Notes: generated by a model from the letters alone, not told the origin. DNA of 46,751 bases from Patescibacteria group bacterium (GCA_022563755.1 JADFMT010000001.1:1-46751), one strand, 5' to 3'; shown: positions 2,583 to 18,879, counted from the first letter of the stretch. A program made the numbers and translations.

Positions 2583-5306
2583 ATGTTTAAAAAACTCCAA
2601 AAGATTCTTGCACCCATTCTTATTGTGGCAGTGCTTACGCCATCCATTATGGTGCTAACCGTTCCCAGAAAAGCAGATGCTTTGTTTTTTGATGTTATCC
2701 AGGGCACGAAAGAAGCTTTTCTTGACACGATTGCGATTGTTATCGCAAGAACGCTTGTCCGTCAAATGTCGCAAAACATTATTACATGGATACGAAGCGG
2801 GTTTGATGGTAAACCGCTTTTTATCACCAACCCTCGCCGGTTTTTACAGCAAACCGCAGATATCGCAGTGGGCAGAGTACTGGACGACCAGCTTGGCCCA
2901 AATGCTAAATTTCTATGTAGTCCCTTTCGTATCAATGTTGTAATCGGGCTTTTATCATTCCGGCGTGTAGCTCCACCTGCATGTACGCTTTCGCAGATTG
3001 TTGATAATGTTGACCAGTTCTTCTCAGATTTCTCACAAGGCGGGTGGCCGGGGTTTCTTACCATTTCGTCTAACGTAAACAATAATGCAATAGGCTCGCT
3101 GCTAGTGCGGTTTGATGGATTGGCTCGGGCAGCTGCGCGCGCAACAGGAGAGAAACGAGACAGTATTTTGATAAATAAAGGCTTTATTTTGACAAGGTGT
3201 GTACGACGCGCCACACCTACTACTCAACAAGTTGATCCTTTTGGAGGAGTGGGAGGACAAGTTGACCCTTTTGGAGGAGTGGGAGGGCCAGGGGGAGCAA
3301 CTTCGGATACATGCATCGAAGAAGAACAAGTAACCCCCGGTGTTGCTATAGAAGATTCATTAGTCAATGTTTATGGGCAAGACTTCAGACAGCTGGGTGT
3401 TGCAGATGAAATCAACGAAATTATTGTCGCCTTGGTTCAGCAACTGCTTTTCGCTCCCGGCGGTCTTTTTGGCCCAAAAATACCACATCTTCCGAGCATT
3501 GACACACGATCCGCATTTCAACGGATAAAAGACAATCTGCTTCAAAGAATAAACGGGCTTTTGCCGCCTGAACGTGCATTTTTGAATATTCAGCGAACTG
3601 CCTCATCCACCTTTAGTACTCTTATCACAAACCTAGAAATACTCGAGACATGCAAATCCCAAAACCACACAACTAAAATTGAGAGCTTAACGGAAAGGGC
3701 AAAACCCTTTACAAAGAAGGCCGGGCGATCACGGCAAGTCATCGCAGAACTGGAAGAAATTGCAAGTCAAATCAGAGCGCTTGCAGAATTGGATCCGAAT
3801 GTTTCCGGGCTTGGACGGATGAGGCGAGAAATACAAACGTTTCTTCGAAAATTTGACGCCGTTGATGCGCTAAAAAGCGGTATTGCAGCCCTCGGAGACG
3901 TTATTAAAACCCTGAATGACCTGGCAAGTGATCCCGATGCCACAATCAATACAGATAAGCTGAACGCGATCGTAACAGAAATCCAAGCGCTCATCACGCT
4001 CATCGGCGATGACGCAACGCCCGGAACCTTGATCTATGAGATCGGTTTCCTCGCAGAGACACAAACACAGCCTGATCTCGATATCCTAGTATTAGAAGAG
4101 GTTAAACAAGACCTTCAGCGCTTCATTGGCAGCGTTGTATCTTCCGACTTTGAACCCTCTGATTTGGAAATACTCGTTCGCGATGTTCTTTTGCGCATTG
4201 GCGCTCTCAAGCAGGATATTCGAGAACTTGTGAACTCTAGCGTAAATCTCTCGGTTCTGGACCGGCTAAAACGAGTCCTGGAAGGAATTCTGGATGATAT
4301 TGCAACCAGAATTCTGAATTTAGATATTTCAGAAATAAATGCAGTGGTTGGAGATATTGAACTTCTTATCGATAAGATTGAAAATTTTGACAGCCTGGTA
4401 GCAGGAGTTAGCGATAAACCCAAGCCTGAAAATATAATATTTGCAGAAATTGAAAAAGATATCGGAAACCTGATTGCAAAAATCCAGCAAGCATCAGCTA
4501 TTGATATAGTATTCCTTCAAAACGCGGGTAACGTGATAACGGACCAAGCAGGAAGACTCCAGGGGGAGGCAGATATCGCAGAAGCCCAGAAGGATTTAGA
4601 CATAGTACGCGGTGAGGTCTGCCCGCGCATTCGAGCCACCTTTGATGAAGCTCGGCGTAACAGGGATTGCACGGGCATAATAACGACCGACAGAGATGAT
4701 GAAGGAAACGTTATAAGCAGGGACATCGAATGGCCGTATGGAGAGCCAACCTCAACCTGTCCACAAACAAGAGCAGAGGCCGCCGCAGCGGCAGCGGAGC
4801 GGGAGAAAAAAAGAAGAGATGATGATACTAACGGAAATGGAAACGGGAATGGGGACACAAATGGGAACGGAAATGGCGTAGGCAGTATTTGTCTCGTGTA
4901 CGATACGCTGGTTCTGATGTCTAACGGCACGTATAAAGTTATACAAGACATAGAAGTTGGGGATAGGGTTAAAGGGTTTGATATTAATACAGGGAAAGCG
5001 GTAAATACTACGGTAATCGATACCTTAAAAGACCACCCGAGAAATGACTATTATGTCATCAACAACGAATTGAATATTACCAATGATCACCCTGTAGCTT
5101 TGTTAGAAAAGAATTCCATTGTATGGAGAAGAACAGATGAATTGCAAATCGGGGATAAAATAAAATCCATCTCAGGCATTATTGAGGTAAAAAGTATAGA
5201 GATATCGCGCACCCAAGCGACCACTGCAAACCTGTACACCGAATTAGGAAACTTCATCGCTCAAGGCAAGAACGGCGGCATTTATGTGGTAAAGAGCGAT
5301 TATTAA
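2583..5306 (+). CDS. Large (907 aa) exported/surface protein: N-terminal signal anchor, long helical middle, C-terminal Hint (intein-like) autoprocessing domain
   Basis: Long ORF with an N-terminal hydrophobic segment (ILAPILIVAVLTPSIMVLTV). The middle is helical and rich in Leu/Ile/Asp/Glu. A Gly/Asn linker precedes CLVYDTLVLMSNG..., ITNDH (TxxH) and NFIAQG...IYVVK-SDY. See findings. Confidence 0.7.
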   Translation: MFKKLQKILAPILIVAVLTPSIMVLTVPRKADALFFDVIQGTKEAFLDTIAIVIARTLVRQMSQNIITWIRSGFDGKPLFITNPRRFLQQTADIAVGRVLDDQLGPNAKFLCSPFRINVVIGLLSFRRVAPPACTLSQIVDNVDQFFSDFSQGGWPGFLTISSNVNNNAIGSLLVRFDGLARAAARATGEKRDSILINKGFILTRCVRRATPTTQQVDPFGGVGGQVDPFGGVGGPGGATSDTCIEEEQVTPGVAIEDSLVNVYGQDFRQLGVADEINEIIVALVQQLLFAPGGLFGPKIPHLPSIDTRSAFQRIKDNLLQRINGLLPPERAFLNIQRTASSTFSTLITNLEILETCKSQNHTTKIESLTERAKPFTKKAGRSRQVIAELEEIASQIRALAELDPNVSGLGRMRREIQTFLRKFDAVDALKSGIAALGDVIKTLNDLASDPDATINTDKLNAIVTEIQALITLIGDDATPGTLIYEIGFLAETQTQPDLDILVLEEVKQDLQRFIGSVVSSDFEPSDLEILVRDVLLRIGALKQDIRELVNSSVNLSVLDRLKRVLEGILDDIATRILNLDISEINAVVGDIELLIDKIENFDSLVAGVSDKPKPENIIFAEIEKDIGNLIAKIQQASAIDIVFLQNAGNVITDQAGRLQGEADIAEAQKDLDIVRGEVCPRIRATFDEARRNRDCTGIITTDRDDEGNVISRDIEWPYGEPTSTCPQTRAEAAAAAAEREKKRRDDDTNGNGNGNGDTNGNGNGVGSICLVYDTLVLMSNGTYKVIQDIEVGDRVKGFDINTGKAVNTTVIDTLKDHPRNDYYVINNELNITNDHPVALLEKNSIVWRRTDELQIGDKIKSISGIIEVKSIEISRTQATTANLYTELGNFIAQGKNGGIYVVKSDY
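3228..3287 (+). repeat. In-frame 30-bp tandem duplication (2 copies, 28/30 identical) encoding QVDPFGGVGG twice
   Basis: caagttgatccttttggaggagtgggagga (3228-3257) is followed directly by caagttgacccttttggaggagtgggaggg (3258-3287). Both differences are synonymous (gat/gac, gga/ggg). Confidence 0.95.
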
Positions 5307-5316
5307 TTTCTTTCAA

Positions 5317-7500
5317 ATGAAGAAAAAAGATTCAAAAATAAAACCCCTGAAAGCTATTTTAGTGCTGGTTTTGATATTTGGATTTTTGTTTCTTTTGTTG
5401 CCGCGCGGAGTAATTCAGGCTCAGCAAACGCTAGACGATCTTTGCGTTATTGGCATATTATCCATCGGCAATCTTTTAACGGGTATTTGTATCGCAAAAG
5501 GGATAGCATGGGTGGGATACATTTTGCTGTTTCTTATCTCGAAAATTCTTAGTGTAACGGGAATATTTTTCAATGAGGTCATTGAGATCGTATTGAAACC
5601 GGACATGTATAACATCCCTGCTCTTAAAAATACCTGGGCCACATCCCGCGATACCGCAAATCTATTTTTCATTTTCGTCCTTTTAACAATTGCGATCGCT
5701 ACCATTTTACGGATTGAAACGTACGGGGCAAAAAAGCTTCTGCCAAAACTTATTATCGCAGCGCTCTTCATTAACTTTTCTTTTTTGATCACTCAATATG
5801 TTATTCTCTCATCAAACTTGCTTGCAGGTTTCTTTCTTGACGGCTTAAAGGGGCAAGGTGGTGTAGCGGCGTCAATATCAGAAAAAGTTCTAAAGGATGT
5901 AAATCCTCTCAATATCTTCAAACTCCCTGCGGTCAGCAACGTTGAGGAAGCGGAAAAAGAGATAGAAAGATTAAAACAAAGAAGAAAGGCTGTTTCAGGG
6001 GTCGGGGGAGTTCCCGGTCAGCGTAAGCTCGTGTGCACAACTACATCTGGAACTATAACAGTGGCGGAATGTCTAGACAGTATAGATAAAAAAATAACGA
6101 CACTTGAGACTACAAAAAAGGGCCTCAGCGAACAAGGCGCCTCGCCTAGCACTCTGAATATATTCTTAGGTGTTTTTGTAACTACGGTTTTTGGTATGAT
6201 TATTTTCTTTGTAGCCGCCTTTGTCTTTGCTGCCGGGGCGATTTTACTGCTTACGCGCATGGTTATTTTGTGGATCCTGCTTGTGCTCTCCCCCTTCGCT
6301 TTTCTCTTTATGATCCTTCCAAAAACTGCCTCCTACGCCCAAAAATGGTGGGACACGCTCTTTAGTCAGGCGCTTTTCCCCGTAGCCTTTTATTTCTTAT
6401 TTTCACTTGCGCTTACCATGCTTGGTTCGAGGAAGATCAAAGAAACCTATGGGCAAATATCCCCCGGGAACGAGCTTAATATTGCAACAATGATACTCTT
6501 CTTTTCAACCCAGATTATACTCTTCATTCTGGCTCTTGTTGTTGCCAAAGAACTGAGCGCGATGGGTTCCGGAGCAATGATAAGCGGGGGTAAAGCCGCG
6601 GCAAAATGGGCGCGAGGCGCAACGGTTGAAGCGTCGTCCAGAATATCCAAACGGGCGCTGGGCGGAGCATCTGCTGCTGCTCTAAAATCCCGGCCTGCAG
6701 AATGGATCTCAAAAATACCGCTTGCGCGCCAAGCCTTGCGGCCGCTTGCCGCTGGTGCGCGGGTCGCTGAAAAACAAGCATCAGAGGATGCGAAACGTCT
6801 TTCGGGTCTTTCGATCCGCGAACAATCAAGGCTTATCCCAACGCTTAGCGCGCGCGCTCAAGCATTTGCGTTTCGCGACATGAAAGACCAAGACGCAGGA
6901 AAACTGATGAAAGAGATGAGCTCGGGCGAGCGACAACGATTTGGCAAACGAATGAAGGGCTTTAACGAGGAGCTTGGTAGAAAAGCTGCAGGCGCCACGG
7001 GAAGCATGAAAGAAGCAACAACGATTCTATACAATGCGCCCTCCAAACCGCCGCCAAAAAATACTACGCAAGGGGAAGAATATCAACAAAACCTTAACAA
7101 ACTTTTCAAAGAGCTGAAAGCTGATCAGCTCGGAGGTTTCGATCTAAAAAAAGAGTTAGAAGATAAAGCTTTAAGTGAGTACACCCCTGAAGCTTTATTC
7201 AAGGGGCTTAATAAGGAAAATATTTCAGGAATTACGAAAAATATCAAAAATGCTGATGCCTTGAGAGATATGGTACGAAAAGAAGCCAAAGATCACGACA
7301 TGATGGACGAAAATGAAAACATTAAATTCGATGAGTTTACACGGCATATACGCGGTGGCGCATATCGCAATAATTCGTTGGCAGAATACTTCCAAAGCAC
7401 GCCGGCAAGAAGATTCTATGGGGGTGGAGGCATTACAGAGGAAAAAAAAGAGGAAAAAAAATCGCCAGAAGAACCAGGCTCTTATCACTTCACTGATTAA
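5317..7500 (+). CDS. Polytopic membrane protein, VirB6/TrbL-like, with long charged cytoplasmic tail
   Basis: 727-aa ORF starting 11 nt after the previous stop. Many TM helices fall in two blocks (aa ~15-180 and ~285-420), separated by a soluble loop, followed by a ~300-aa Lys/Glu/Ala-rich tail. Position and topology match VirB6/TrbL-type T4SS channel proteins. No sharp motif was recognised. Confidence 0.45.
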   Translation: MKKKDSKIKPLKAILVLVLIFGFLFLLLPRGVIQAQQTLDDLCVIGILSIGNLLTGICIAKGIAWVGYILLFLISKILSVTGIFFNEVIEIVLKPDMYNIPALKNTWATSRDTANLFFIFVLLTIAIATILRIETYGAKKLLPKLIIAALFINFSFLITQYVILSSNLLAGFFLDGLKGQGGVAASISEKVLKDVNPLNIFKLPAVSNVEEAEKEIERLKQRRKAVSGVGGVPGQRKLVCTTTSGTITVAECLDSIDKKITTLETTKKGLSEQGASPSTLNIFLGVFVTTVFGMIIFFVAAFVFAAGAILLLTRMVILWILLVLSPFAFLFMILPKTASYAQKWWDTLFSQALFPVAFYFLFSLALTMLGSRKIKETYGQISPGNELNIATMILFFSTQIILFILALVVAKELSAMGSGAMISGGKAAAKWARGATVEASSRISKRALGGASAAALKSRPAEWISKIPLARQALRPLAAGARVAEKQASEDAKRLSGLSIREQSRLIPTLSARAQAFAFRDMKDQDAGKLMKEMSSGERQRFGKRMKGFNEELGRKAAGATGSMKEATTILYNAPSKPPPKNTTQGEEYQQNLNKLFKELKADQLGGFDLKKELEDKALSEYTPEALFKGLNKENISGITKNIKNADALRDMVRKEAKDHDMMDENENIKFDEFTRHIRGGAYRNNSLAEYFQSTPARRFYGGGGITEEKKEEKKSPEEPGSYHFTD

Positions 7501-8062: not shown

Positions 8063-8473
8063 ATGCGCCAATTTACGGTTCCACAATTTATTGACGTAGA
8101 GGATAAAATTTTTGGGCCTCTAAGCCTAAAGCAGTTCATTTATCTTTTGGGCGGGGCAGCGGCCCTATTTATTCTTTTTGTATTCTTGCCATTTTTCCTG
8201 TTTATCCTCCTTGCGATTCCGGTTGGTGGGTTTGCTGCAGCGCTTGCGTTTTATAAAGTAAACAATCAACCGTTCATTAAAGTCATTGCAAATGCCATAT
8301 CGTATTATACGGGTTCGCGCCTCTATATATGGAGAAAGCGCGAGGCAAAGAAAAAGAAAATCGAGATAACAAAACCAGCGCCCACCACTCTTAAGATGGG
8401 GGTTCCAAAAATAACGGAAAGCAGATTAAAAGACATCGCTTGGAGTTTAGATGTTAAAGAAACGATAAAATAA
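8063..8473 (+). CDS. PrgI-like small 2-TM T4SS protein (VirB3 analogue)
   Basis: The N-terminus MRQFTVPQFIDVEDKIFGPLSLKQFIYLLGG is followed by two TM helices and a basic tail. This is the pattern of the PrgI family encoded next to VirB4 in Gram-positive-type T4SS loci. Confidence 0.5.
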   Translation: MRQFTVPQFIDVEDKIFGPLSLKQFIYLLGGAAALFILFVFLPFFLFILLAIPVGGFAAALAFYKVNNQPFIKVIANAISYYTGSRLYIWRKREAKKKKIEITKPAPTTLKMGVPKITESRLKDIAWSLDVKETIK

Positions 8474-8477
8474 TTTT

Positions 8478-9143
8478 ATGCCCAAACCATCAAAAGGAAA
8501 ATCAGCACAAGACTTTGTCCCCATTCGAGAAATCCGAGATGGCGTGGTTATTACAGAGGATAACCGACTGCATGCGGTCCTGATGGCCTCATCTCTTAAT
8601 TTTGCCCTGCGTTCAGCCGACGAACAGGAAGCCATTACGTCTCAATATCAAAACTTTTTAAATGCCTTGGATTTTTCGGTGCAAATCCTGATCCAGTCCC
8701 GGCGTTTAAATATCGAGCCCTATCTCGAAACATTGAGGGAGGCTGAAAAACAACAAACCAATGAACTCTTGAAAATTCAAACTCGTGAATATATTGAATT
8801 TGTCCGAGTATTCGTAGAGAACACGAAAATTGTGAGTCGGCACTTTTATATTGTGGTAACCTTCGTACCCGCCTTTCTCGGGGCAGGGGGGAAGGGGATT
8901 GCAGGAATATTTGGTGGACTTTTAGGTGGCAAGAAAAAGTCAGCCAGAGGACCGGCAGAGGATGAAAAGTTTGAAGAATACAAGGCTCAACTTTTTCAAC
9001 GGACCGAAACCGTCTCGGGCACGCTTTCTTCAACCGGCGTTCGGACCGTGCCGCTTGAGACGCAGGAATTAATAGAGCTTTTCTATGGATTCTTTAATCC
9101 CGGGGAATTAGAGCGCGGGCATGCGCCACAAATACGTAGTTAA
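8478..9143 (+). CDS. T4SS-associated protein resembling the extreme N-terminal module of Gram-positive VirB4 ATPases
   Basis: The motif run QDFVPIREIRDGVVITEDNRLHAVLMASSLNFALRSADEQEAITSQYQNFLNAL resembles, from memory, the first ~100 aa of Tn916 Orf16 / ConE-class VirB4 proteins. It lies directly upstream of the VirB4 ATPase ORF. Confidence 0.4.
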   Translation: MPKPSKGKSAQDFVPIREIRDGVVITEDNRLHAVLMASSLNFALRSADEQEAITSQYQNFLNALDFSVQILIQSRRLNIEPYLETLREAEKQQTNELLKIQTREYIEFVRVFVENTKIVSRHFYIVVTFVPAFLGAGGKGIAGIFGGLLGGKKKSARGPAEDEKFEEYKAQLFQRTETVSGTLSSTGVRTVPLETQELIELFYGFFNPGELERGHAPQIRS

Positions 9144-9230: not shown

Positions 9231-11066
9231 ATGGCTTTACTAGACTTCTTAAAACCGAAAAAGAAGGACGAGGAGGAAAAGATTATTGCGATCGCGCCCG
9301 AGCAGATTTACGAAGCAGCGGTTTTGGAATTGAAAGATATCATCGCTCCCTCTGCTCTTGAGATCAATACCAGTTACATAAAACTGGGCGAGAAAATCGC
9401 GCGCACCTTATTCATTTTTTCCTATCCCAAATTTTTATCCATCAACTGGTTCAGCCCGATCATTAATCTGGACAAGGTTTTTGACATCTCGCTCTTTATC
9501 CACCCGATTGATACCGCAACCGTCCTCAGGCAGCTCCAAAAAAAAGTGGCGGAAGTACAATCTCAAATTCACACGCGCCAGGAAAAAGGAATGGTCCGCG
9601 ATCCCATGCTCGATAGTGCCTACCAAAATTTAGAAGAGCTTCGCGATAAACTTCAACAAGCCCAGGAAAAGCTTTTTTCATTTGGTTTTTATATCACCAT
9701 CTATGCGGACTCGCTGGAAGAACTGAACCGAGAAGAATCTGAAATTCGCTCCATGCTGGAATCTAAACTGGTCTATGCGAAACCGGCTCTTTTTCAACAG
9801 CTGGAAGGGCTGCTTTCCAACTTTCCTTTGGGTACCGACAAGCTCGCAATTAATACCCGATTGAATTCATCGCCAATCTCAAGCATTTTTCCATTTGTTT
9901 CGTTTGATCTTACCTCAAACAAAGGAATTCTTTACGGAATTAATCGCCACAACAACGGCTTGGTGCTTTTTGACCGCTACAGCCTTGAGAATTACAATTC
10001 TGTTCTTTTTGCAAAAAGCGGCTCGGGCAAAAGCTATACGATGAAACTAGAAATCCTCCGCTCTTTAATGTTTGATGTCGACGTGATTATTATTGATCCG
10101 GAGCGCGAATACGAATATCTTGCAGAAGCGGTTGACGGACGCTACTTTAATATTTCTTTGACCTCGCAACATCACATTAATCCATTTGACTTGCCGACTC
10201 CACGCGAAGATGAGGATCCGGCTGACGTGCTTCGCTCAAACATTATCAACCTGGTTGGCCTTTTTCGGATTATGCTCGGTGGTTTAACGCCTGAGGAGGA
10301 TTCTATTTTGGACCGGGCGATTTCCGAAACGTATGCCTCGCGCGACATAACGCCGGATGCGGATTTTACAACAAAGATACCGCCCATCTTGTCAGACCTG
10401 GACCTGGTCCTTGCCAACATGGAAGGAGGGGAATCGCTTGCCCAGCGGCTCCGCAAATACACACAAGGCACATGGGCAGGATTTATTAACCAGCCCACCA
10501 ATGTGGATATTAATAAAAAGTTGATTGTTTTCTCGGTTCGCGATATGGAGGACGAACTGCGGCCCATCGCCATGTATCTCATCATTCACTATATTTGGAA
10601 TGCGATCAGGAAAAACATTAAAAAGCGGCTTTTAGTGATTGATGAGGCGTGGTGGATTATGAAGCATGAGGACGGCGCATCGTTTTTATTCGGAATTGCC
10701 AAGCGCGCGCGCAAATACTTTTTGGGCGTGGCTACGATTACCCAAGACGTGGACGACTTCCTGCGCTCGCCCTACGGGATTCCCATTATCACAAACTCTT
10801 CCATGCAGCTCCTCTTAAAACAATCGCCTACCACGATCGATGTAGTGAAAAAAGCCTTTAATTTAACCGACGAGGAGAAATTTCTTCTTTTGGAATCCGA
10901 TGTGGGCGAGGGGATGTTTTTTGCAGGACTTAAGCATGTTGCGATAAAAATTATCAGCTCGTACACCGAAGATCAAATTATCACCTCTGACCCGCATCAA
11001 TTATTAGCCATAAAGAAGGCAAAACAAGAGTTTGCCCAAACCAATAAAAAAGAAAATGGCGAGTGA
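9231..11066 (+). CDS. VirB4/TrbE-family T4SS ATPase (C-terminal two thirds)
   Basis: 611 aa. Contains IIAPSALEINTSYIKLGEKIARTLFIFSYP (VirB4 middle block), Walker A AKSGSGKSYTMK, Walker B LLVIDEAWW and a conserved ITQ motif (GVATITQDVDDF). Confidence 0.8.
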   Translation: MALLDFLKPKKKDEEEKIIAIAPEQIYEAAVLELKDIIAPSALEINTSYIKLGEKIARTLFIFSYPKFLSINWFSPIINLDKVFDISLFIHPIDTATVLRQLQKKVAEVQSQIHTRQEKGMVRDPMLDSAYQNLEELRDKLQQAQEKLFSFGFYITIYADSLEELNREESEIRSMLESKLVYAKPALFQQLEGLLSNFPLGTDKLAINTRLNSSPISSIFPFVSFDLTSNKGILYGINRHNNGLVLFDRYSLENYNSVLFAKSGSGKSYTMKLEILRSLMFDVDVIIIDPEREYEYLAEAVDGRYFNISLTSQHHINPFDLPTPREDEDPADVLRSNIINLVGLFRIMLGGLTPEEDSILDRAISETYASRDITPDADFTTKIPPILSDLDLVLANMEGGESLAQRLRKYTQGTWAGFINQPTNVDINKKLIVFSVRDMEDELRPIAMYLIIHYIWNAIRKNIKKRLLVIDEAWWIMKHEDGASFLFGIAKRARKYFLGVATITQDVDDFLRSPYGIPIITNSSMQLLLKQSPTTIDVVKKAFNLTDEEKFLLLESDVGEGMFFAGLKHVAIKIISSYTEDQIITSDPHQLLAIKKAKQEFAQTNKKENGE

Positions 11067-11463: not shown

Positions 11464-12463
11464 GATATTTTCCATTTTAATAATAGTCATCCTCGCAGGG
11501 TTTCTGCAACCTCACGCTATGCACGCTCAATTTCTTTCTAACCAAGATGTTGGTTCGGTTTTTATTGAACTCGTTCAGCAATTTTCAGGACCAGTAAAAG
11601 AATTTCAAGGTCCCAATGAAAACTATGTGGCCTGGATAAGAAGCTCGAGCATTGATGTAAATCGCGCGACCATCACCTGGATTCATAATGGAGATACGGT
11701 TGCAAGCGGACTGGGAGTAAAAACCTATCAATTTAGAACCGGCGATGTTGGCGAGCGCGAGTCACTGCGCGCGATCGTTGTAGCAAATGGCGGCAGGCGC
11801 CTTGAAGCATCTCAAGTCTTTCGTATAAATAATGTTGATCTCTTGTGGACGGCAAATACAACCGTTCCGGCCTGGTACAAAGGTAAGGCCTTGGCATCTC
11901 CCCGCTCAATTATTACGGTGAGTGCTTTCCCGGAGATTATGAGAAATGGCTCAAAGACGCCGTCCTCTCAACTCATCTATCGCTGGTCATTAGATGATGA
12001 TTTTATTCCTGAAGAATCCGGGGCAGGAAGAAGAAATTTTTCTTTCCGGGCAGACCTCATTCCGGGCACCGAGCACGAAATAACCATAACTGTATCCGAT
12101 CTGAGTGGTACGCGCGGGGCTCAAAAAACCATTGTGATTCCGGTAGCTGGGCCTAAAGTTCTTTTTTATGAAGAGCGTCCCCTTGAGGGCACGGTGATAG
12201 GTGCGGCCTTAACGAATTTTATTTTGCCTGCCGGCACCCAAAGCACATTTAGAGCGGTTCCATTCTTTTTCACTCGAGGCGCTCCATTATCCTATAAATG
12301 GTTCATTGACGGAGAGGCCGCCCAGGAAGAGGGGCTGCCCGATATTCTTCGCCTTACCGCAGCCATCGGTTCGGGGGGGTTGGTTTCCATATCCACAACG
12401 ATTAATAATGTTCGAAATATTTTGCAGCGAATAAGCGATAGTTTTACCATCGATGTTCAATAA
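11456..12463 (+). CDS. Secreted protein with three ~100-aa internal beta-rich repeats
   Basis: ATG 11456 gives a clean signal peptide MLKIFSILIIVILAGFLQPHAMHA-Q and overlaps the upstream stop (ATGCTTAA). Recurring anchors are ITWIHNGDTVASG, LIYRWSLDDDFIPEESG and LSYKWFIDGEAAQEEG. Confidence 0.55.
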   Translation: MLKIFSILIIVILAGFLQPHAMHAQFLSNQDVGSVFIELVQQFSGPVKEFQGPNENYVAWIRSSSIDVNRATITWIHNGDTVASGLGVKTYQFRTGDVGERESLRAIVVANGGRRLEASQVFRINNVDLLWTANTTVPAWYKGKALASPRSIITVSAFPEIMRNGSKTPSSQLIYRWSLDDDFIPEESGAGRRNFSFRADLIPGTEHEITITVSDLSGTRGAQKTIVIPVAGPKVLFYEERPLEGTVIGAALTNFILPAGTQSTFRAVPFFFTRGAPLSYKWFIDGEAAQEEGLPDILRLTAAIGSGGLVSISTTINNVRNILQRISDSFTIDVQ

Positions 12464-13031
12464 GATTTTCATTATAGTGCTTTTAGTATCGAGCTTTATG
12501 CTGGCAATACATTTTGCTGATGCTGCCCAAGGAATAGTTAAGCAATTTGAAGGGTTTGGGAAAGAACCCGGACAAGCTTTTATCAATTTTCTTGTTTGGC
12601 TTTTCCCGCTCATGCTGGCATCGGCTATGGTTTTAGCGGTTCTTATGATTATTTTCGCTGGGTTTCAATGGATGGCAGGCGCTGTCTCACCTCCTCAAGT
12701 AGAAGAGGCAAAAAAGAAGATTTGGGCTGCGGTTATTGGACTTACGCTTGCTTTAACTTCCTTTTTAATCCTTAAGACCATTAATCCGGATTTAGTGAGC
12801 TTGCGAAATCCCAGAACTCTAGTCGTGCCTAAGCCACCCGAAATTCCTGAAACTCCTGTCACGCAAACTCCATTAGAATGTTATCAGGGTCCGGGCGGAT
12901 TTTTCAACAACCGACAAGATTGTGTACTAGCATTGCCCGCTGGACCAATACGGCAAGCTTGTATAGGAATGGAAGAGAGTCTCCCTGGAGCATTAGAATG
13001 CCTTTGTACACCCACAGGAGCATGCATATAA
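12453..13031 (+). CDS. VirB2/TrbC-like T4SS pilin with Pro-rich linker and 6-Cys C-terminal extension
   Basis: A signal-like N-terminus (IFIIVLLVSSFMLAIHFADA) is followed by two TM helices separated by a short polar loop (LMLASAMVLAVLMIIFAGFQWMAG ... KKKIWAAVIGLTLALTSFLILKTINP), as in T4SS pilins. The start overlaps the previous stop by 11 nt. Confidence 0.55.
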   Translation: MFNKIFIIVLLVSSFMLAIHFADAAQGIVKQFEGFGKEPGQAFINFLVWLFPLMLASAMVLAVLMIIFAGFQWMAGAVSPPQVEEAKKKIWAAVIGLTLALTSFLILKTINPDLVSLRNPRTLVVPKPPEIPETPVTQTPLECYQGPGGFFNNRQDCVLALPAGPIRQACIGMEESLPGALECLCTPTGACI

Positions 13032-14389: not shown

Positions 14390-14848
14390 TTATAAAGGCT
14401 TAATCACTACTTTTCTTTCCGCGCCCTCGCCCGTACTTTGAGTTGCAATGTCTGGATACTCGGTAAGGGTGGCATGAACCACTCTTCGCTCATATGCGCT
14501 CATCGGTTGCATGGCAACCTCTTTTTTAAAATATCTCACGCGCTGGGCAGAAAGACGAGCTAAGTCTTTTACCTCCTCTATTTTCTGTTTTTGATAGTCA
14601 TTCACATCAACAAAAAATTTGGGAACCTCACTCTGATCCTTCAGCGTGTATTCGGTTATTCTTCGGATAATATGGTTGAGGGCCCGTAAACGCTCGCCAT
14701 TTTCTCCAATAAGCAAGCCTCCGTCTTTTGTGTGGATGCTAAAATATACGTTTTCCGGATATTCAATAAAATCAACTGAGCCTGAACATCCCAATTTTTC
14801 AATTAGGGTTTGAATCATTTCTTGAATTTTCTTGATCTCTTTTTCCAT
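14390..14848 (-). CDS. jag: Jag/KhpB-type KH + R3H RNA-binding protein
   Basis: The C-terminal R3H signature is MQPMSAYERRVVHATLTEYPDIATQSTGEGAERKVVIKP, and it sits immediately downstream of yidC. The annotated start overlaps the yidC 3' end by 50 nt; an internal Met at 14818 would reduce the overlap to 20 nt. Confidence 0.75.
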   Translation of the reverse strand: MEKEIKKIQEMIQTLIEKLGCSGSVDFIEYPENVYFSIHTKDGGLLIGENGERLRALNHIIRRITEYTLKDQSEVPKFFVDVNDYQKQKIEEVKDLARLSAQRVRYFKKEVAMQPMSAYERRVVHATLTEYPDIATQSTGEGAERKVVIKPL

Positions 14849-15578
14849 AAAGTATTTTTGCCTTTCGTCTTACGATTCCTTCGTGCAGTATACTAAACAT
14901 ATTAATCGTTGTCCAATAAAGACTCACGGCCGCAGGAAAACGAAGCGCAATAAAAAAGATGAGCGCCGGCATCATATAGGTCATCTGAAATGTTAACATT
15001 TGACTGAAGTCGCCCGGCCGGCGATCTTTTTTATTTGCGCCCTTACGGGAGGATGATTTAGAAACCTGAGCCCACTTCATCTGCACAAATTGTGAAAGAC
15101 CGGTTAGTACTGCCAAAAAAATACTTGGCTGAGTTAACTCAATGAGCCCCAAAAATTTCGTATGGATAATCTCCGGTAAGGAAACAAAAGAATAAAGATA
15201 TTTAGCTCCGGATGAAATATCATCAATAAAAACAAAATAGAGAGCGATCAGAATCGGAAGCTGAATAAAAAGCATTAAAATGCCGGAGAACGGATTAATG
15301 CCGTGCTTTTTGTAAAGCTCCATGGTCAGACGAGCTTGTTCTTGCCGATCTTTATGGTCTTCTTTGATTTTTCTTAGCTCCGGTTCAACGAATTTCATCT
15401 TTTGTTGAGTTTGAACCGAGCGGTGGGTTAATGGAAACAGCGCCAAACGCACAACGAGCGTGAGGATGATCACGCTCAGTCCTAAATCATGAAACGGTAA
15501 GACGTCGGTTAGAAAAACTAACGCATTGAACAAAGGGCGAAAAAAGATCTCGTTGAATAGAGTGCCAAACCAACTCAT
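14799..15578 (-). CDS. yidC: YidC/Oxa1-family membrane protein insertase (short form)
   Basis: 259 aa and multi-TM, with conserved stretches GINPFSGILMLFIQLPILIALYFVF and AAVSLYWTTINMFSILHEGIV. Classical rnpA-yidC-jag order. Confidence 0.85.
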   Translation of the reverse strand: MSWFGTLFNEIFFRPLFNALVFLTDVLPFHDLGLSVIILTLVVRLALFPLTHRSVQTQQKMKFVEPELRKIKEDHKDRQEQARLTMELYKKHGINPFSGILMLFIQLPILIALYFVFIDDISSGAKYLYSFVSLPEIIHTKFLGLIELTQPSIFLAVLTGLSQFVQMKWAQVSKSSSRKGANKKDRRPGDFSQMLTFQMTYMMPALIFFIALRFPAAVSLYWTTINMFSILHEGIVRRKAKILYGKRDQENSRNDSNPN

Positions 15579-15907
15579 ATGGATTTAAAAAATTTATTTA
15601 ATTTCTTTTTTAACTCTTGAAAAGAAAGGTTTTCTACTCCTTTTTGAAAGGAAATTACAATATCGTAGGATGATTTTACGTGGGGCAATAAAGAATGTAT
15701 AATTTCTCGTGCCCTGCGTCGAAGTTTATTGCGCACGACTGCGCGTTTATCTATCTTTTTAGAGACAAGAATGGCAATCTTAGAATCATGCCTTCTTGAT
15801 GCAATAAAATACATTTTTATCTCTGAATTTATGATTTTCTTTCCGCGGCGAATAACGTTGGGAATCCATGTCCGACTGGATGGGTTAATTTTTTTACTTA
15901 AAACCAT
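15575..15907 (-). CDS. rnpA: RNase P protein component
   Basis: 110 aa and basic, with the RNR-type motif AVVRNKLRRRAREI. Its start codon overlaps the rpmH stop (TAATG), and its stop overlaps the yidC start by 4 nt. Confidence 0.8.
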   Translation of the reverse strand: MVLSKKINPSSRTWIPNVIRRGKKIINSEIKMYFIASRRHDSKIAILVSKKIDKRAVVRNKLRRRAREIIHSLLPHVKSSYDIVISFQKGVENLSFQELKKKLNKFFKSI

Positions 15908-16041
15908 TAAACAGTTAGCTTCTTTCTGCCTTTACGGCGTCTTCTTGTAAGCACCCTTCCTCCGGAAGTCTTTTTACGCTTTAAAAATCCATGCGTTCGC
16001 TTTCTTTTGCGCCGTTTAGGTTGATAGGTTCTTTTGGGCAT
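15907..16041 (-). CDS. rpmH: 50S ribosomal protein L34 (not in the ORF track, below size cutoff)
   Basis: Hand translation of the minus strand gives [44 protein letters not shown] (44 aa, 135 nt including TAA), the canonical L34 sequence pattern, in the canonical position between dnaA and rnpA. Confidence 0.9.
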
Positions 16042-16227
16042 ATGAATTCTTTATTCTACAACACATTTAATGGTTTAACAATATTAACAAACCGTCCCCA
16101 GATTATTAACATAATAGCAAGGTTTAGTAAAAATTAAAGTTATTTTAGAGTGCGCTATACTTTAATATAATAGACATTATCATAAATAATAATTATCTTG
16201 TTACTTGCTAATCAAAAACACATACCT

Positions 16228-17583
16228 ATGACTAAAGAAGAGCTTTGGAAATTAGTTCTTCGGGAACTGGAGCTTGAAGTTTCTAAAGCAAATTTTGCCA
16301 CGTGGTTTCAACATACGCTTATTGCTGATCACGCGGATGGCAGAGTGACGATTGGTACTCCGTCGGCATTTGTTAAAGAGTGGTTAGAAAATAAATATCA
16401 AAAACCTATTCTTAAATCTTTGCGGTTGCATGCCCCGGACGTTCGAGGAATAGAATTTTCAATTACTTCTCAAAAAGCCGCGCCTACTACAAAATCAGCG
16501 CTCCCGAAGCCTCAAGAGGAGCAATTAGATTTTCGCGAACTATATGTCGATAAAAAAACCAATCTAAATCCGCGCTACACGTTTGAAAATTTTATTGTTG
16601 GGACTTTCAACGAACTTGCATCCGCATGTGCACATGCAATTGTCAAAAGCCTTGGCACCCTCTATAATCCTCTTTTTATCTATGGGGGAGTGGGGTTGGG
16701 AAAAACCCATCTCTTGCAGGCAATTGGAAATAAATTAAAAGAAGAACAGCCAGCCAAAAAAATCTACTATGTGAGCGCGGAACGGTTTGCTAATGAGCTC
16801 GTCTCAGCTATTCGAAATAATGAAACGCCTATTTTCAAAGACAAATACCGCTCTTTTGATGTATTAATTATTGACGATATCCAATTTATTTCAAATCGAA
16901 CATCGACTCAGGAAGAGGTTTTCCACACCTTCAACACAATGTACGAATTAAATAAGCAAATTGTTTTTTCTTCAGATCGTCCTCCGAAATCAATCCAAAA
17001 TCTTGAAGAACGTCTTCGCTCCCGCTTTGAGGGAGGCATGATTGCGGATATCTCAGAACCAGATTACGAAACACGTCTTGCGATATTGCAGACAAAAGCC
17101 TCTCAAAAACAAGAATATGTCCCTAACTTAGAAATTCTTGAATATATCGCTTCGGTAGTCCGTTCAAACATTAGAGAACTGGAGGGAGCGCTGAATACCG
17201 TTGTAGTTGGGTCCAAAATAAAAAAGCGGCACTTATCTTTAGATGAAGTGAAAAATGCTCTGAGTAAAAATACGAAGCCGAAGAAAATTCTTCATGCCGG
17301 ACAAATTATACAGTTGGTTGCTCGTTTTTACGATGTTCCGGAAAAGTATCTTTTTGAAAAAACCAGGAGAAAAGAGGTAGTGCGTCCACGCCAAGTCGCA
17401 ATGTACCTCTTGCGAGAAGATTTTAATGGCTCGTATCCTTATATCGGTCAAAAATTTGGCGGGCGTGATCATACCACTGCCATCCATGCATGTGTTAAAA
17501 TCGCAAGGGATGCAAAAAAAGACGAGCGTTTAAAAGAAGAGTTGAAGTTAATCCGTGAACAGCTTTATGAAGCTGAAAAATAG
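16228..17583 (+). CDS. dnaA: Chromosomal replication initiator DnaA
   Basis: Contains Walker A GGVGLGKTHLL, VLIIDDIQF, sensor/box VII region and the C-terminal DNA-binding signature RQVAMYLLRE...GRDHTTAIHA. The ORF track begins at TTG 16198; ATG 16228 (MTKEELWKLV) is the more likely start. Confidence 0.95.
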   Translation: MTKEELWKLVLRELELEVSKANFATWFQHTLIADHADGRVTIGTPSAFVKEWLENKYQKPILKSLRLHAPDVRGIEFSITSQKAAPTTKSALPKPQEEQLDFRELYVDKKTNLNPRYTFENFIVGTFNELASACAHAIVKSLGTLYNPLFIYGGVGLGKTHLLQAIGNKLKEEQPAKKIYYVSAERFANELVSAIRNNETPIFKDKYRSFDVLIIDDIQFISNRTSTQEEVFHTFNTMYELNKQIVFSSDRPPKSIQNLEERLRSRFEGGMIADISEPDYETRLAILQTKASQKQEYVPNLEILEYIASVVRSNIRELEGALNTVVVGSKIKKRHLSLDEVKNALSKNTKPKKILHAGQIIQLVARFYDVPEKYLFEKTRRKEVVRPRQVAMYLLREDFNGSYPYIGQKFGGRDHTTAIHACVKIARDAKKDERLKEELKLIREQLYEAEK

Positions 17584-17778
17584 CCTGTTTACAACTTAAG
17601 GAAAAAGTGTGTTTATTTTTTAAAGAATTAAAACGGTAGTAAATTATTCACACTTTATTCAGAAGAAATTAAAAAATAAAATTTAGAAATCACTTTCGTT
17701 TGTAATAAAAAAATGGTTTTCCACTTATCCACAAACTAATCTACAACTACTTTATAAATTATTAATATATATATTCGT
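17584..17778. promoter_or_regulatory. Candidate oriC (dnaA-dnaN spacer with DnaA boxes and AT-rich unwinding stretch)
   Basis: Perfect TTATCCACA at 17725-17733 and one-mismatch TTATTCACA at 17644-17652, in the same orientation. An almost pure A/T run at 17741-17775 sits just upstream of dnaN. Confidence 0.55.
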
Positions 17779-18879
17779 ATGGAATTTACTTGTTTAAAAG
17801 AACAACTTCAAAAAAGCCTGCAATTAGCAGAGCGTCATATAGATCGCGCCTCAACTATTCCTATTCTTAAAGGAATTTTATTAAAAACAGATAAAAATAC
17901 TTTAATTATTCGTTCAACAGATCTTAATACAGGATTTGAAACCTATATATCAGCACAAATTAAAAAAGAAGGAACGATTGTTATTCCTGCGCGTCCCAGT
18001 ATCTCACTCATATCTTCTATAACAGGAGAAAAGACCCGTATTTTATCTCTTAACAATAATATGAATCTTATTACTAAAAATACCACTACAGTAATTAAGG
18101 GGTATCCACACGAAGAATTTCCAAAACTTCCTGAAATAAAAAATGGTGAGAAAATAATTTTCTCTATTCGGGATTTATTAAAGCAGTTAAAAAGCGTTTT
18201 TTTTGCTGCCTCGCAATCGGATATAAAACCAGAAATCTCAAGTATTTTATTCAAGGGCGACTCTAATCAGCTTATTAAAATAGCAGCTACCGATTCATTT
18301 CGCCTGGCTGAGAAATCATTTAAAGCTCATTATAATAAACCCTTTTCTTTTTTATTTCCTGTGCGTCGCGCCATCGAATTTATTAAGATACTTGAAGGTT
18401 TTAATGGGGAAGTTGAAGTTATTTTTGATCAGCAACAGTTATGTGCTCTTCATCCCTCTTTTTCTTATTTTACAAGACTAACAGAGGGTAGATTTCCAGA
18501 TTACGAACAGATTATCCCCACCACCTTTAGCACAGAAGGAACAATTAGCCGGCGCGAACTTATTGAAAACCTAAAACTTGCAGGTATATTTTCAGGGCGG
18601 ATGAAGGAGGTTCACCTTCGGGTTTACCCAAACGATAATCTTTTAGAAATATCTACTCAGGATAGTGAACTAGGGGAGCACGTAAGTCGTTTGTCTATTC
18701 GGGCAACTGGAGAGAATATAGATATGTCATTTAATCAGCGATATATTTTAGATGGCTTGGAACCCATTGAATCCGAACAAGTTATTCTTCGATTCAGTGG
18801 CGCGGGCCGCCCGCTCACGATTCAAAATCCACAAGATTTATCATATACTTATTTAGTTATGCCGATGAAAAATCCATAA
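17779..18879 (+). CDS. dnaN: DNA polymerase III beta sliding clamp
   Basis: 366 aa, directly after dnaA. Typical N-terminus (MEFTCLKEQLQKSLQLAERHIDRASTIPILKGILL), ATDSFRLAEK and the C-terminal end YLVMPMK. Confidence 0.85.
   Translation: MEFTCLKEQLQKSLQLAERHIDRASTIPILKGILLKTDKNTLIIRSTDLNTGFETYISAQIKKEGTIVIPARPSISLISSITGEKTRILSLNNNMNLITKNTTTVIKGYPHEEFPKLPEIKNGEKIIFSIRDLLKQLKSVFFAASQSDIKPEISSILFKGDSNQLIKIAATDSFRLAEKSFKAHYNKPFSFLFPVRRAIEFIKILEGFNGEVEVIFDQQQLCALHPSFSYFTRLTEGRFPDYEQIIPTTFSTEGTISRRELIENLKLAGIFSGRMKEVHLRVYPNDNLLEISTQDSELGEHVSRLSIRATGENIDMSFNQRYILDGLEPIESEQVILRFSGAGRPLTIQNPQDLSYTYLVMPMKNP

Follow-up and report, generated by a model that had tools for sequence, protein, structure and literature searches.

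Residues 770-907 of a protein encoded in a 46,751 nt stretch of DNA from a Patescibacteria group bacterium (GCA_022563755.1, JADFMT010000001.1:1-46751; this entire stretch is referred to as the window) are a genuine Hedgehog/intein-type (Hint) domain, found at the very end of a protein from a type IV secretion system (T4SS) locus. As judged by alignment, the domain has retained the residues of the N-S acyl shift and lost the three required for Asn cyclisation. It is predicted to be a competent but non-splicing autoprocessing domain, which would probably undergo the acyl shift at the Ile769-Cys770 junction and then N-terminal cleavage. The gene and the parts of its product are as follows.

2583..5306, + strand: whole gene, encoding a 907-residue exported protein with a terminal Hint domain (from the list of open reading frames and their translation)
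2583..2681, + strand: predicted Sec signal peptide or N-terminal anchor, residues 1-33, ending ...PRKADA/L (read from the sequence)
2688..3482, + strand: conserved N-terminal domain, residues ~36-300, common to homologues P0002-P0018
3483..4652, + strand: Leu/Ile/Asp/Glu-rich spacer, residues 301-690, presumed from its composition to be helical or coiled-coil
4818..4889, + strand: Asn/Gly-rich flexible linker DDDTNGNGNGNGDTNGNGNGVGSI, residues 746-769, the last being the -1 residue, Ile769
4890..5303, + strand: Hint domain, Cys770-Ser905, and two-residue tail, Asp906-Tyr907
4890..4892, + strand: Cys770 (TGT), the Hint block A nucleophile at position 1
5034..5042, + strand: His818-Pro-Arg820, subfamily-specific motif (from subfamily alignment A2)
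5079..5090, + strand: block B, T833-N-D-H836 (TxxH)
5232..5267, + strand: block F equivalent LYTELGNFIAQG, with Gly889 replacing the block F His
5280..5297, + strand: block G equivalent IYVVKS, with Lys904 and Ser905 in the His-Asn columns

The elements listed in a preliminary description of this DNA are all present: the 907-codon open reading frame (ORF), Cys770, the linker, ITNDH (residues 832-836) about 64 residues further on, and a final SDY (residues 905-907) followed by the stop codon (TAA, 5304-5306). The Thr and His of block B fall at Hint positions 64 and 67, while LYTELGNF and IYVVK correspond to residues 884-891 and 900-904. No C-extein is hidden beyond the stop, since the following gene begins 10 nt further on in a different frame and has its own signal or transmembrane segment. 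The possibilities that a C-extein is frameshifted or otherwise concealed, and that the window contains another copy of the Hint domain, were considered and rejected.

Queried with nothing but the Hint domain, a word-indexed search for homologues returned a single fragment, and an exhaustive phmmer search of 1.84 billion representative sequences, with the 139-residue module as the query, was used instead. This identified 1742 relatives at E <= 1e-3, 191 of them at E <= 1e-10; a scan of GTDB genomes with ten closer sequences yielded three loci, and an exact look-up of the window protein among assemblies gave no match. When the isolated module was compared with Pfam, Hint-clan families were the sole matches, namely Hint (PF01079; 27.5 bits), PT-HINT (22.9), Hom_end_hint (21), Intein_splicing (20.2) and Vint (18.9), though all are below the gathering score. 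No match was found at E <= 1 to Hint_2, which we take to represent the B-type bacterial intein-like (BIL) domains. With this number of relatives, some of which do exceed Pfam gathering scores (P0020 reaches 58.8 bits with PT-HINT and 55 with Intein_splicing), the resemblance to Hint domains is far beyond chance. No single family of the clan dominates across the 42 members scanned (Vint 27, Hint 19, PT-HINT 15, Intein_splicing 13, Hom_end_hint 11, Hint_2 8), and NCBIfam holds no specific model for the domain, producing weak intein N-terminal matches alone.

In a search of the Protein Data Bank (PDB) by sequence, the module matches 8w20 best and also matches the Pab PolC intein and 2lwy; a profile of the subfamily finds 8w20, 2lwy and BIL2, and 2lwy ranks second with either query. 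An AlphaFold2 model of the domain built on 40 subfamily sequences has a predicted local distance difference test (pLDDT) score of 95.7 and a predicted template modelling (pTM) score of 0.89, an earlier alignment of three sequences having given a useless model (pLDDT 41.7). Comparison of the later model with the PDB using Foldseek gave 54 matches at E <= 1e-3, and the 50 best listed are all inteins, BIL domains or Hedgehog proteins. The template modelling (TM) scores are 0.80/0.83 for the BIL domain 2lwy, 0.82 for Tetrahymena BIL2 (6y75), 0.77 for the Ssp DnaB mini-intein and 0.75-0.77 for Hedgehog (1at0 and 6tyy). The features by which the Hint superfamily is recognised can all be found: the fold, in the predicted model, a Cys or Ser at position 1, and the TxxH of block B. 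The domain had been proposed to be of the Hedgehog/BIL type, keeping the residues of the N-terminal chemistry and lacking those of splicing, and the profiles, the predicted fold and the pattern of conservation all point the same way.

Residues kept and lost at the end of the polypeptide

The fate of individual residues was followed in a re-alignment of 269 Hint copies, taken from the best 150 of the 1742 relatives. Position 1 is Cys in all 236 domains aligned there, and the block B columns hold Thr in 244/264 (with Ser in ten) and His in 257/263. Cys1, Thr and His are also retained in the orthologues P0002 and P0019, and Asp835 and His836 are invariant in alignment A2. The subfamily consensus is C-L-L...D-H-x-R...I-T-N-D-H-P...T-V-Y-x-E-T-x-x-G-N-F...Y-V-V-[K/H/R]-[S/G/A]-x-Y, in which an S/G/A column stands at the position of the terminal Asn. 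Sister domains recovered by the same search end in ...Y-[LV]-V-H-N-K or [YL]-L-V-H-N-K and carry H-N-[FY] in block F; the block F triplets of the Asn-less domains are GNF, GSF and RNF, as opposed to HNY, HTY and HNF in their His-Asn-ending sisters.

MAFFT aligns YVVKS beneath the [YL]LVHN of the sister domains. In this register Lys904 would occupy the column of the penultimate His (K28/H9/R4/N3) and Ser905 that of the terminal Asn (S23/G10/A6); other members of the same subfamily end in ...YVVHGDY. The preliminary description was right that there is no Asn, which holds for both registers, and that the block F His is replaced by Gly, but its pairing of Val and Lys with the His-Asn of block G was one residue out of register. 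Its three-residue tail, SDY, is correspondingly shortened to two, Asp906 and Tyr907. The last of these is invariant in the subfamily (33/33), and belongs to a set of near-invariant positions in alignment A2 that are dispensable for the acyl shift: His818 (His in at least 90%), Arg820 (invariant), Asn827, Trp848 and Tyr907. The His818-x-Arg820 motif may have a regulatory part in the reaction or serve in nucleophile activation.

Classing 133 near-complete domains from the same 150 relatives by their last block reveals an association between loss of the Asn and position in the polypeptide. Domains ending in His-Asn account for 74/133, and 61 of these 74 are internal, with more than 30 residues following and often in tandem arrays. 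The [K/H/R..][S/G/A]-x-Y ending is found in 38/133, all except two of which (36/38) are followed by 30 residues or fewer, while a further 13/133 lack the Asn in other ways (H-Q, H-E, K-E, K-G), ten of them with at most five residues after the domain. Overall, 47/51 Asn-less domains have no more than 30 residues after them. Excluding eight domains that have an Asn without a preceding His, the Fisher test on the remaining 125/133 gives an odds ratio of 55 (p = 1.3e-17), the counts being uncorrected for phylogeny. As the Asn-less domains are terminal and the His-Asn domains internal, the residues of C-terminal cleavage appear to have been shed precisely in those domains that have no downstream part to release, as would be expected if the N-terminal reaction were the selected function. 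On the evidence of these sequences, the 38 domains constitute a coherent prokaryotic subfamily of Asn-less terminal Hints, to which the window domain belongs.

The orthologue P0002, a protein of 1024 residues with 43% identity to the window protein, has an identical architecture and occupies the same operon slot. Identity between the two is 66% over the Hint domain, 54% over the N-terminal domain, 23-37% over the spacer and 25% in the linker region. The fragment P0019 (67% identity) ends in ...IYVVKSEY, with its stop at the matching position, and the Hint domain of P0002 ends in ...TYVVMGFY, which an unrelated 21-residue tail follows. In the comparison with P0002 the Hint domain is the most conserved segment of the window protein, and it appears to be under selection. 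For this reason, and because P0019 shares the position of the stop, 'degenerate mini-intein', the term first applied to the domain, is the wrong description: it is better seen as a well-conserved member of the Asn-less terminal subfamily than as a decaying intein.

The exported protein, its locus and other carriers of the subfamily

The sole hydrophobic segment of the 907-residue protein spans residues 5-30. It is followed by PRKADA/L, and the motif PR[KR]A[DEQ]A is also present in the homologues P0010 and P0014. The N-terminal domain, characterised by the motifs WI.SGF.G.P.F, FLCSPF, CTL and FSQGGW, has no Pfam match and no sequence relative in the PDB. It defines an uncharacterised, Patescibacteria-specific family of at least 309 proteins, with names referring to Parcubacteria, Paceibacteria, Minisyncoccia or Patescibacteria and a median length of 457 residues, a few of which have a sub- or near-threshold match to DUF4141 beside the signal peptide. 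Within the gene for the window protein, positions 3231-3287 contain a near-perfect 27 nt tandem duplication with its copies one codon apart, encoding VDPFGGVGG twice (residues 217-225 and 227-235); the site is a loop of low conservation within the N-terminal domain, where 25/50 positions align with P0002, which lacks the duplication. The spacer has weak matches alone, to the helical families DAHL, BLOC1_2 and ApoL. A Gly-rich linker also precedes Cys1 in the relatives P0033 and P0026, in the protein of locus L005 and in P0002.

The C-terminal regions of the homologues are variable and adhesin-like, with F5/8 type C, surface Ig-like, InlB B-repeat, TIG and beta-helix domains. Among 135 retrieved homologues of the host protein, P0002 alone has the Hint domain, the other 134 lacking it and ending differently, which implies that this otherwise conserved protein of the T4SS locus gained the domain, at its variable end, in this lineage alone. 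BIL domains have been reported in variable regions of secreted proteins (PMC7765530, PMC5874633). The genes surrounding that of the window protein are listed below.

1521-2531, same strand: TSP3-repeat protein, the upstream neighbour in the cluster
5317..7500, + strand: VirB6/TrbL-like gene (Pfam TrbL, 40.5 bits)
between the VirB6-like gene and PrgI: small ORF
8063-8473, + strand: PrgI (VirB3-like; Pfam PrgI, 43.9 bits)
8478-9143, + strand: TraC-like N-terminal fragment, 221 residues (Pfam TraC_F_IV)
9231-11066, + strand: VirB4 ATPase, 611 residues (Pfam P-loop_TraG, 87 bits)
between VirB4 and the pilin-like gene: two ORFs
12453..13031, + strand: T4SS pilin-like gene at the operon end (Pfam T4SS_pilin, 25.3 bits, against a gathering score of 26.6)

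This gene order is common to four other contigs (L001-L004), in each of which the slot upstream of the VirB6-like gene is filled by a gene for a protein with a homologous N-terminal domain, and a pilin gene is present at the equivalent position in L002 and L004. With its VirB4, VirB6-like, PrgI/VirB3-like and pilin genes, the cluster as annotated agrees with the MPF-FATA-like T4SS locus of Patescibacteria. It adjoins the origin region, with jag-yidC-rnpA and dnaA-dnaN at 14390-18879 and dnaA itself at 16198. Division of VirB4 between two ORFs is also observed in L002-L004, and in L001 the 221-residue TraC-like ORF is followed by the end of the contig; as the same split recurs in L002-L004, it is a conserved feature rather than an assembly error.

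The T4SS of Patescibacteria is chromosomal, origin-proximal and relaxase-less, and is needed for epibiotic growth (PMC12102498). The same 2025 survey does not mention Hint domains and detected no adhesin in the Patescibacteria T4SS (PMC12102498). Given the adhesin-like C-termini of the family defined by the N-terminal domain, these proteins may be the missing surface component. The window protein had previously been suggested to be a cargo of the secretion system; the signal peptide, the fixed operon slot and the variable, adhesin-like C-terminus of its homologues make it more likely that the protein is exported through the Sec pathway and belongs to the T4SS locus as a component exposed on the surface.

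Other carriers of the subfamily, in which a Gly-rich linker likewise precedes the terminal Hint, are diverse. A Woesearchaeota (DPANN) metagenome-assembled genome (MAG) encodes an 840-residue Cys-rich, membrane-anchored protein (L005, 3898-6420) with a terminal Hint ending in ...YIVNGGYK and the stop, and an archaeal contig that also encodes RNase P p30 has a 417-residue Cys-rich, membrane-anchored protein with a terminal Hint (L008, 3229-4482). Both domains are among the closest relatives of the window Hint (46-54% identity); as two archaeal contigs carry such a terminal domain, the subfamily extends across ultra-small symbionts, bacterial as well as archaeal. The 1345-residue protein at 2359-6396 of L007, a contig from an Opitutia MAG (NZKY01000163.1), has an Asn-less Hint ending in YTVHGDYRNSLAAVG directly before the stop. 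Its N-terminus presumably resembles phage structural proteins, and its architecture brings to mind phage tail fibres, with their C-terminal chaperone domains that cleave themselves off. With regard to phages, a tblastn search of GenBank phage sequences gave two weak intein-like matches alone, and so indicates no phage link for the subfamily in that collection; many non-intein Hint proteins are present in BFVD.

A Proteobacteria MAG (L006, 270-1259) has a His-Asn-type Hint directly before the terminal Asn-less one, and the same two-Hint cassette (...LVHNKGG./CLL...) is seen in P0020, P0031 and P0032. P0033 and P0049 are small terminal-Hint proteins with signal peptides resembling those of twin-arginine translocation (TAT) substrates. 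The N-terminal regions of these two and of the proteins from L005, L006, L007 and L008 are without Pfam domains. Many relatives carry between two and seven tandem His-Asn-type Hints in one polypeptide (for instance P0037, P0022, P0027, P0029 and P0089), and at a junction in P0029 (...LVHNK/CF...) a single residue separates the His-Asn from the Cys1 of the next domain. To our knowledge, these arrays have not been assigned a function.

Autoprocessing and its alternatives

In inteins, BIL domains and Hedgehog proteins, Cys1 and TxxH are enough for thioester formation and N-terminal cleavage (PMC7765530, PMC5874633). Once the window domain had folded, Cys770 would attack the Ile769-Cys770 peptide bond with the aid of Thr833 and His836, and the resulting N-S acyl shift would leave a thioester at Ile769. 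As there is neither an Asn nor a C-extein, resolution of this thioester would be the sole possible outcome, separating the 138-residue Hint from a mature N-terminal fragment of about 735 residues. Hydrolysis would be the default, amounting to plain N-terminal self-cleavage as a step of maturation or release. The acyl shift, its timing before or after export and the way in which the thioester is resolved are all predictions from the sequence.

Several points weigh against self-cleavage. Activity is deduced from residues only, and every Hint-clan score of the window domain falls short of gathering level (27.5 as against 29.7 bits for the best). The -1 residue is Ile, and a beta-branched residue at this position usually slows N-terminal cleavage in inteins. 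It is also not apparent what the cell gains from a terminal domain that merely removes itself. Furthermore, the site of action is uncertain, since the relatives with TAT-like signal peptides (P0033 and P0049) would fold, and possibly cleave, prior to export. Nevertheless, N-terminal autoprocessing is considered probable.

The thioester at Ile769 might instead be taken by an external nucleophile, as in Hedgehog or BUBL-like systems, for instance an amine or a hydroxyl group of the envelope of the same cell, of a pilin or of the host cell surface, to which the long, stalk-like N-terminal fragment would become covalently attached as the Hint departs. Domains of the same fold provide precedents, with Hedgehog passing its thioester to cholesterol and BIL2 to Lys amines without E1, E2 or E3 enzymes (PMC8616854). 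The near-invariance of His818, Arg820, Asn827, Trp848 and Tyr907 exceeds what the acyl shift needs; His818 aligns with His48 of BIL2 in a hidden Markov model (HMM) alignment, and lies within about two residues of the Hedgehog general base Asp46, a placement that is approximate. These extra residues may, however, be purely structural. Attachment would also suit the adhesin-like C-terminal regions of the host-protein homologues (F5/8 type C, Ig-like, InlB B-repeat, TIG) and the biology of Patescibacteria, which are epibionts requiring their T4SS for epibiotic growth (PMC12102498). Against this, two residues follow the Hint, leaving no region comparable to the sterol-recognition adaptor of Hedgehog, and no candidate acceptor is apparent. 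The subfamily moreover spans a Woesearchaeota archaeon, Proteobacteria, Opitutia and a presumably phage-like protein, and since the taxa differ so widely in their envelopes a single specific acceptor is disfavoured. Such transfer seems rather unlikely, without being negligible.

In a particular version of the transfer hypothesis, the domain would be a 'thioester warhead', used once only and borne at the far end of a long stalk on a T4SS-associated surface protein, providing ultra-small episymbionts with a covalent, sortase-independent means of attachment. The group accepting the thioester would then be an amine or hydroxyl of the host surface, the symbiont wall or a pilin, and His818-x-Arg820 together with Tyr907 would form the site activating the acceptor. 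This proposal is speculative and should be considered unlikely.

The Hint fold could alternatively never cleave, its role being in structure or binding, or in helping assembly or secretion. The Ile at -1, unfavourable for N-terminal cleavage, would fit such a role, as would the loss of the block F His and the block G His-Asn, and Cys1 is replaced by Ser in one subfamily member and by Gly in another, although both may be mis-called starts. Yet Cys1, Thr and His are near-invariant over hundreds of divergent copies, with only the residues specific to C-terminal cleavage lost. Such invariance is unexpected for a purely structural role, which is thus disfavoured and regarded as improbable. It is harder still to view the domain as the relic of a polymorphic toxin, a pre-toxin HINT from which the downstream toxin domain was deleted. 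PT-HINT is among its sub-threshold Pfam matches (22.9 bits), the relative P0029 bears the name 'Pretoxin HINT domain' in its source record, 8w20 is a 1368-residue 'Intein C-terminal splicing domain-containing protein' with its Hint far downstream, and the umbrella-toxin protein UmbC1 carries a HINT at the tip of its coiled-coil stalk. The terminal Asn-less form is, however, no product of truncation but a conserved subfamily of wide occurrence, distinguished by an invariant motif at its C-terminus, its stop position is common to P0019, and the Hint is more constrained than the rest of the protein. There are no toxin or immunity genes downstream, the VirB6-like gene beginning 10 nt on. This origin is therefore very unlikely.

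Least plausible of all is a true intein or mini-intein that splices now or once did, which has a vanishingly small probability. The domain does resemble such an element in its fold and in the motifs of blocks A and B, but there is no Asn, no conserved +1 nucleophile (the column being S/G/A) and no C-extein, and the domain is terminal rather than inserted at a conserved site of its host, 134/135 host-protein homologues lacking the region. A canonical intein is ruled out by the terminal position and by the residue pattern, with Lys904-Ser905 in the His-Asn columns.

The distinction between N-terminal cleavage and transfer affects the significance of the domain. Hint domains limited to the N-terminal reaction underlie both the lipidation of Hedgehog and an enzyme-free ubiquitin-like conjugation in ciliates; what is known of BIL domains in prokaryotes concerns mainly their role in polymorphic toxins, as modules for cleavage. 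One copy of the present subfamily sits in a conserved operon slot of the Patescibacteria T4SS, a machinery with uncharacterised surface-exposed parts, and whether it releases or ligates its N-terminal fragment bears on how episymbionts attach to their hosts. Were hydrolysis the only reaction, the domain would be a modest addition to the BIL catalogue, its interest being high only if the thioester serves covalent attachment.

Comparison with known Hint systems

The definitions of BIL types used here are those given in reviews. The A-type BIL4 of Clostridium thermocellum (2lwy), a type corresponding roughly to Pfam PT-HINT, is the best structural match to the window domain. Both are of about 138 residues, have Cys1 and TxxH, belong to the variable part of a secreted protein that is not itself conserved, and would be expected to cleave rather than splice. 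The A-type pattern LVHN-K is also the ending of the nearest sister sequences. However, A-type domains keep the C-terminal His-Asn and cleave at the C-terminus, while the window domain has Lys-Ser, a Gly in block F and nothing to release. It therefore lacks the His-Asn and downstream module of an A-type BIL or pre-toxin HINT, and its PT-HINT score of 22.9 bits is below the gathering score of 27.7.

B-type BIL domains have the N-terminal motifs of inteins, no His-Asn, and a Cys, Ser or Thr at the C-terminal flank (PMC7765530, PMC9185962). In keeping the N-terminal motifs without a His-Asn, the window domain comes nearest to this description, the comparison being one of descriptions only; it differs in that the flanking column of its subfamily (S23/G10/A6) contains no conserved nucleophile and just two residues follow. 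C-type BIL domains, from predatory bacteria, are associated with the PPS-1 domain (PMC9185962).

The Hog domain of Hedgehog is similar in its overall arrangement of signal peptide, cargo and C-terminal Hint, in having Cys1 and TxxH without an Asn and performing only the N-terminal reaction, in its fold (TM 0.75-0.77), and in that Pfam Hint, PF01079, is the top profile match of the window domain (27.5 bits, below the gathering score of 29.7). By contrast, the window protein is prokaryotic, has no sterol-recognition or adaptor region, and has Ser-Ile-Cys-Leu at its junction instead of Gly-Cys-Phe. Tetrahymena BIL2 (BUBL1 locus, 6y75/6tmm) is the second-best structural match, with a TM score of 0.82, but retains Asn143 and is flanked on both sides by ubiquitin-like domains. 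Its His48 is a Zn ligand, and its thioester is passed to a Lys amine (PMC8616854); a counterpart to the second Zn ligand, His125, is not established in the window domain.

A precedent in architecture is a set of bacterial secreted proteins with a C-terminal Hint-like domain, described by Burglin in 2008 as 'yet another subgroup' and found in Myxococcus, Stigmatella, Photorhabdus, Serratia and Yersinia (PMC2362128). These also consist of a signal peptide, an N-terminal region and a divergent C-terminal Hint-like domain. Compared by description, they differ from the window protein in that mainly motifs A and B are conserved, in sharing an N-terminal region among themselves, and in their taxa and N-terminal domains. 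Hence the general architecture has been known since 2008, and it is the terminal motif, the systematic loss of the residues for C-terminal cleavage and the Patescibacteria T4SS context that are new.

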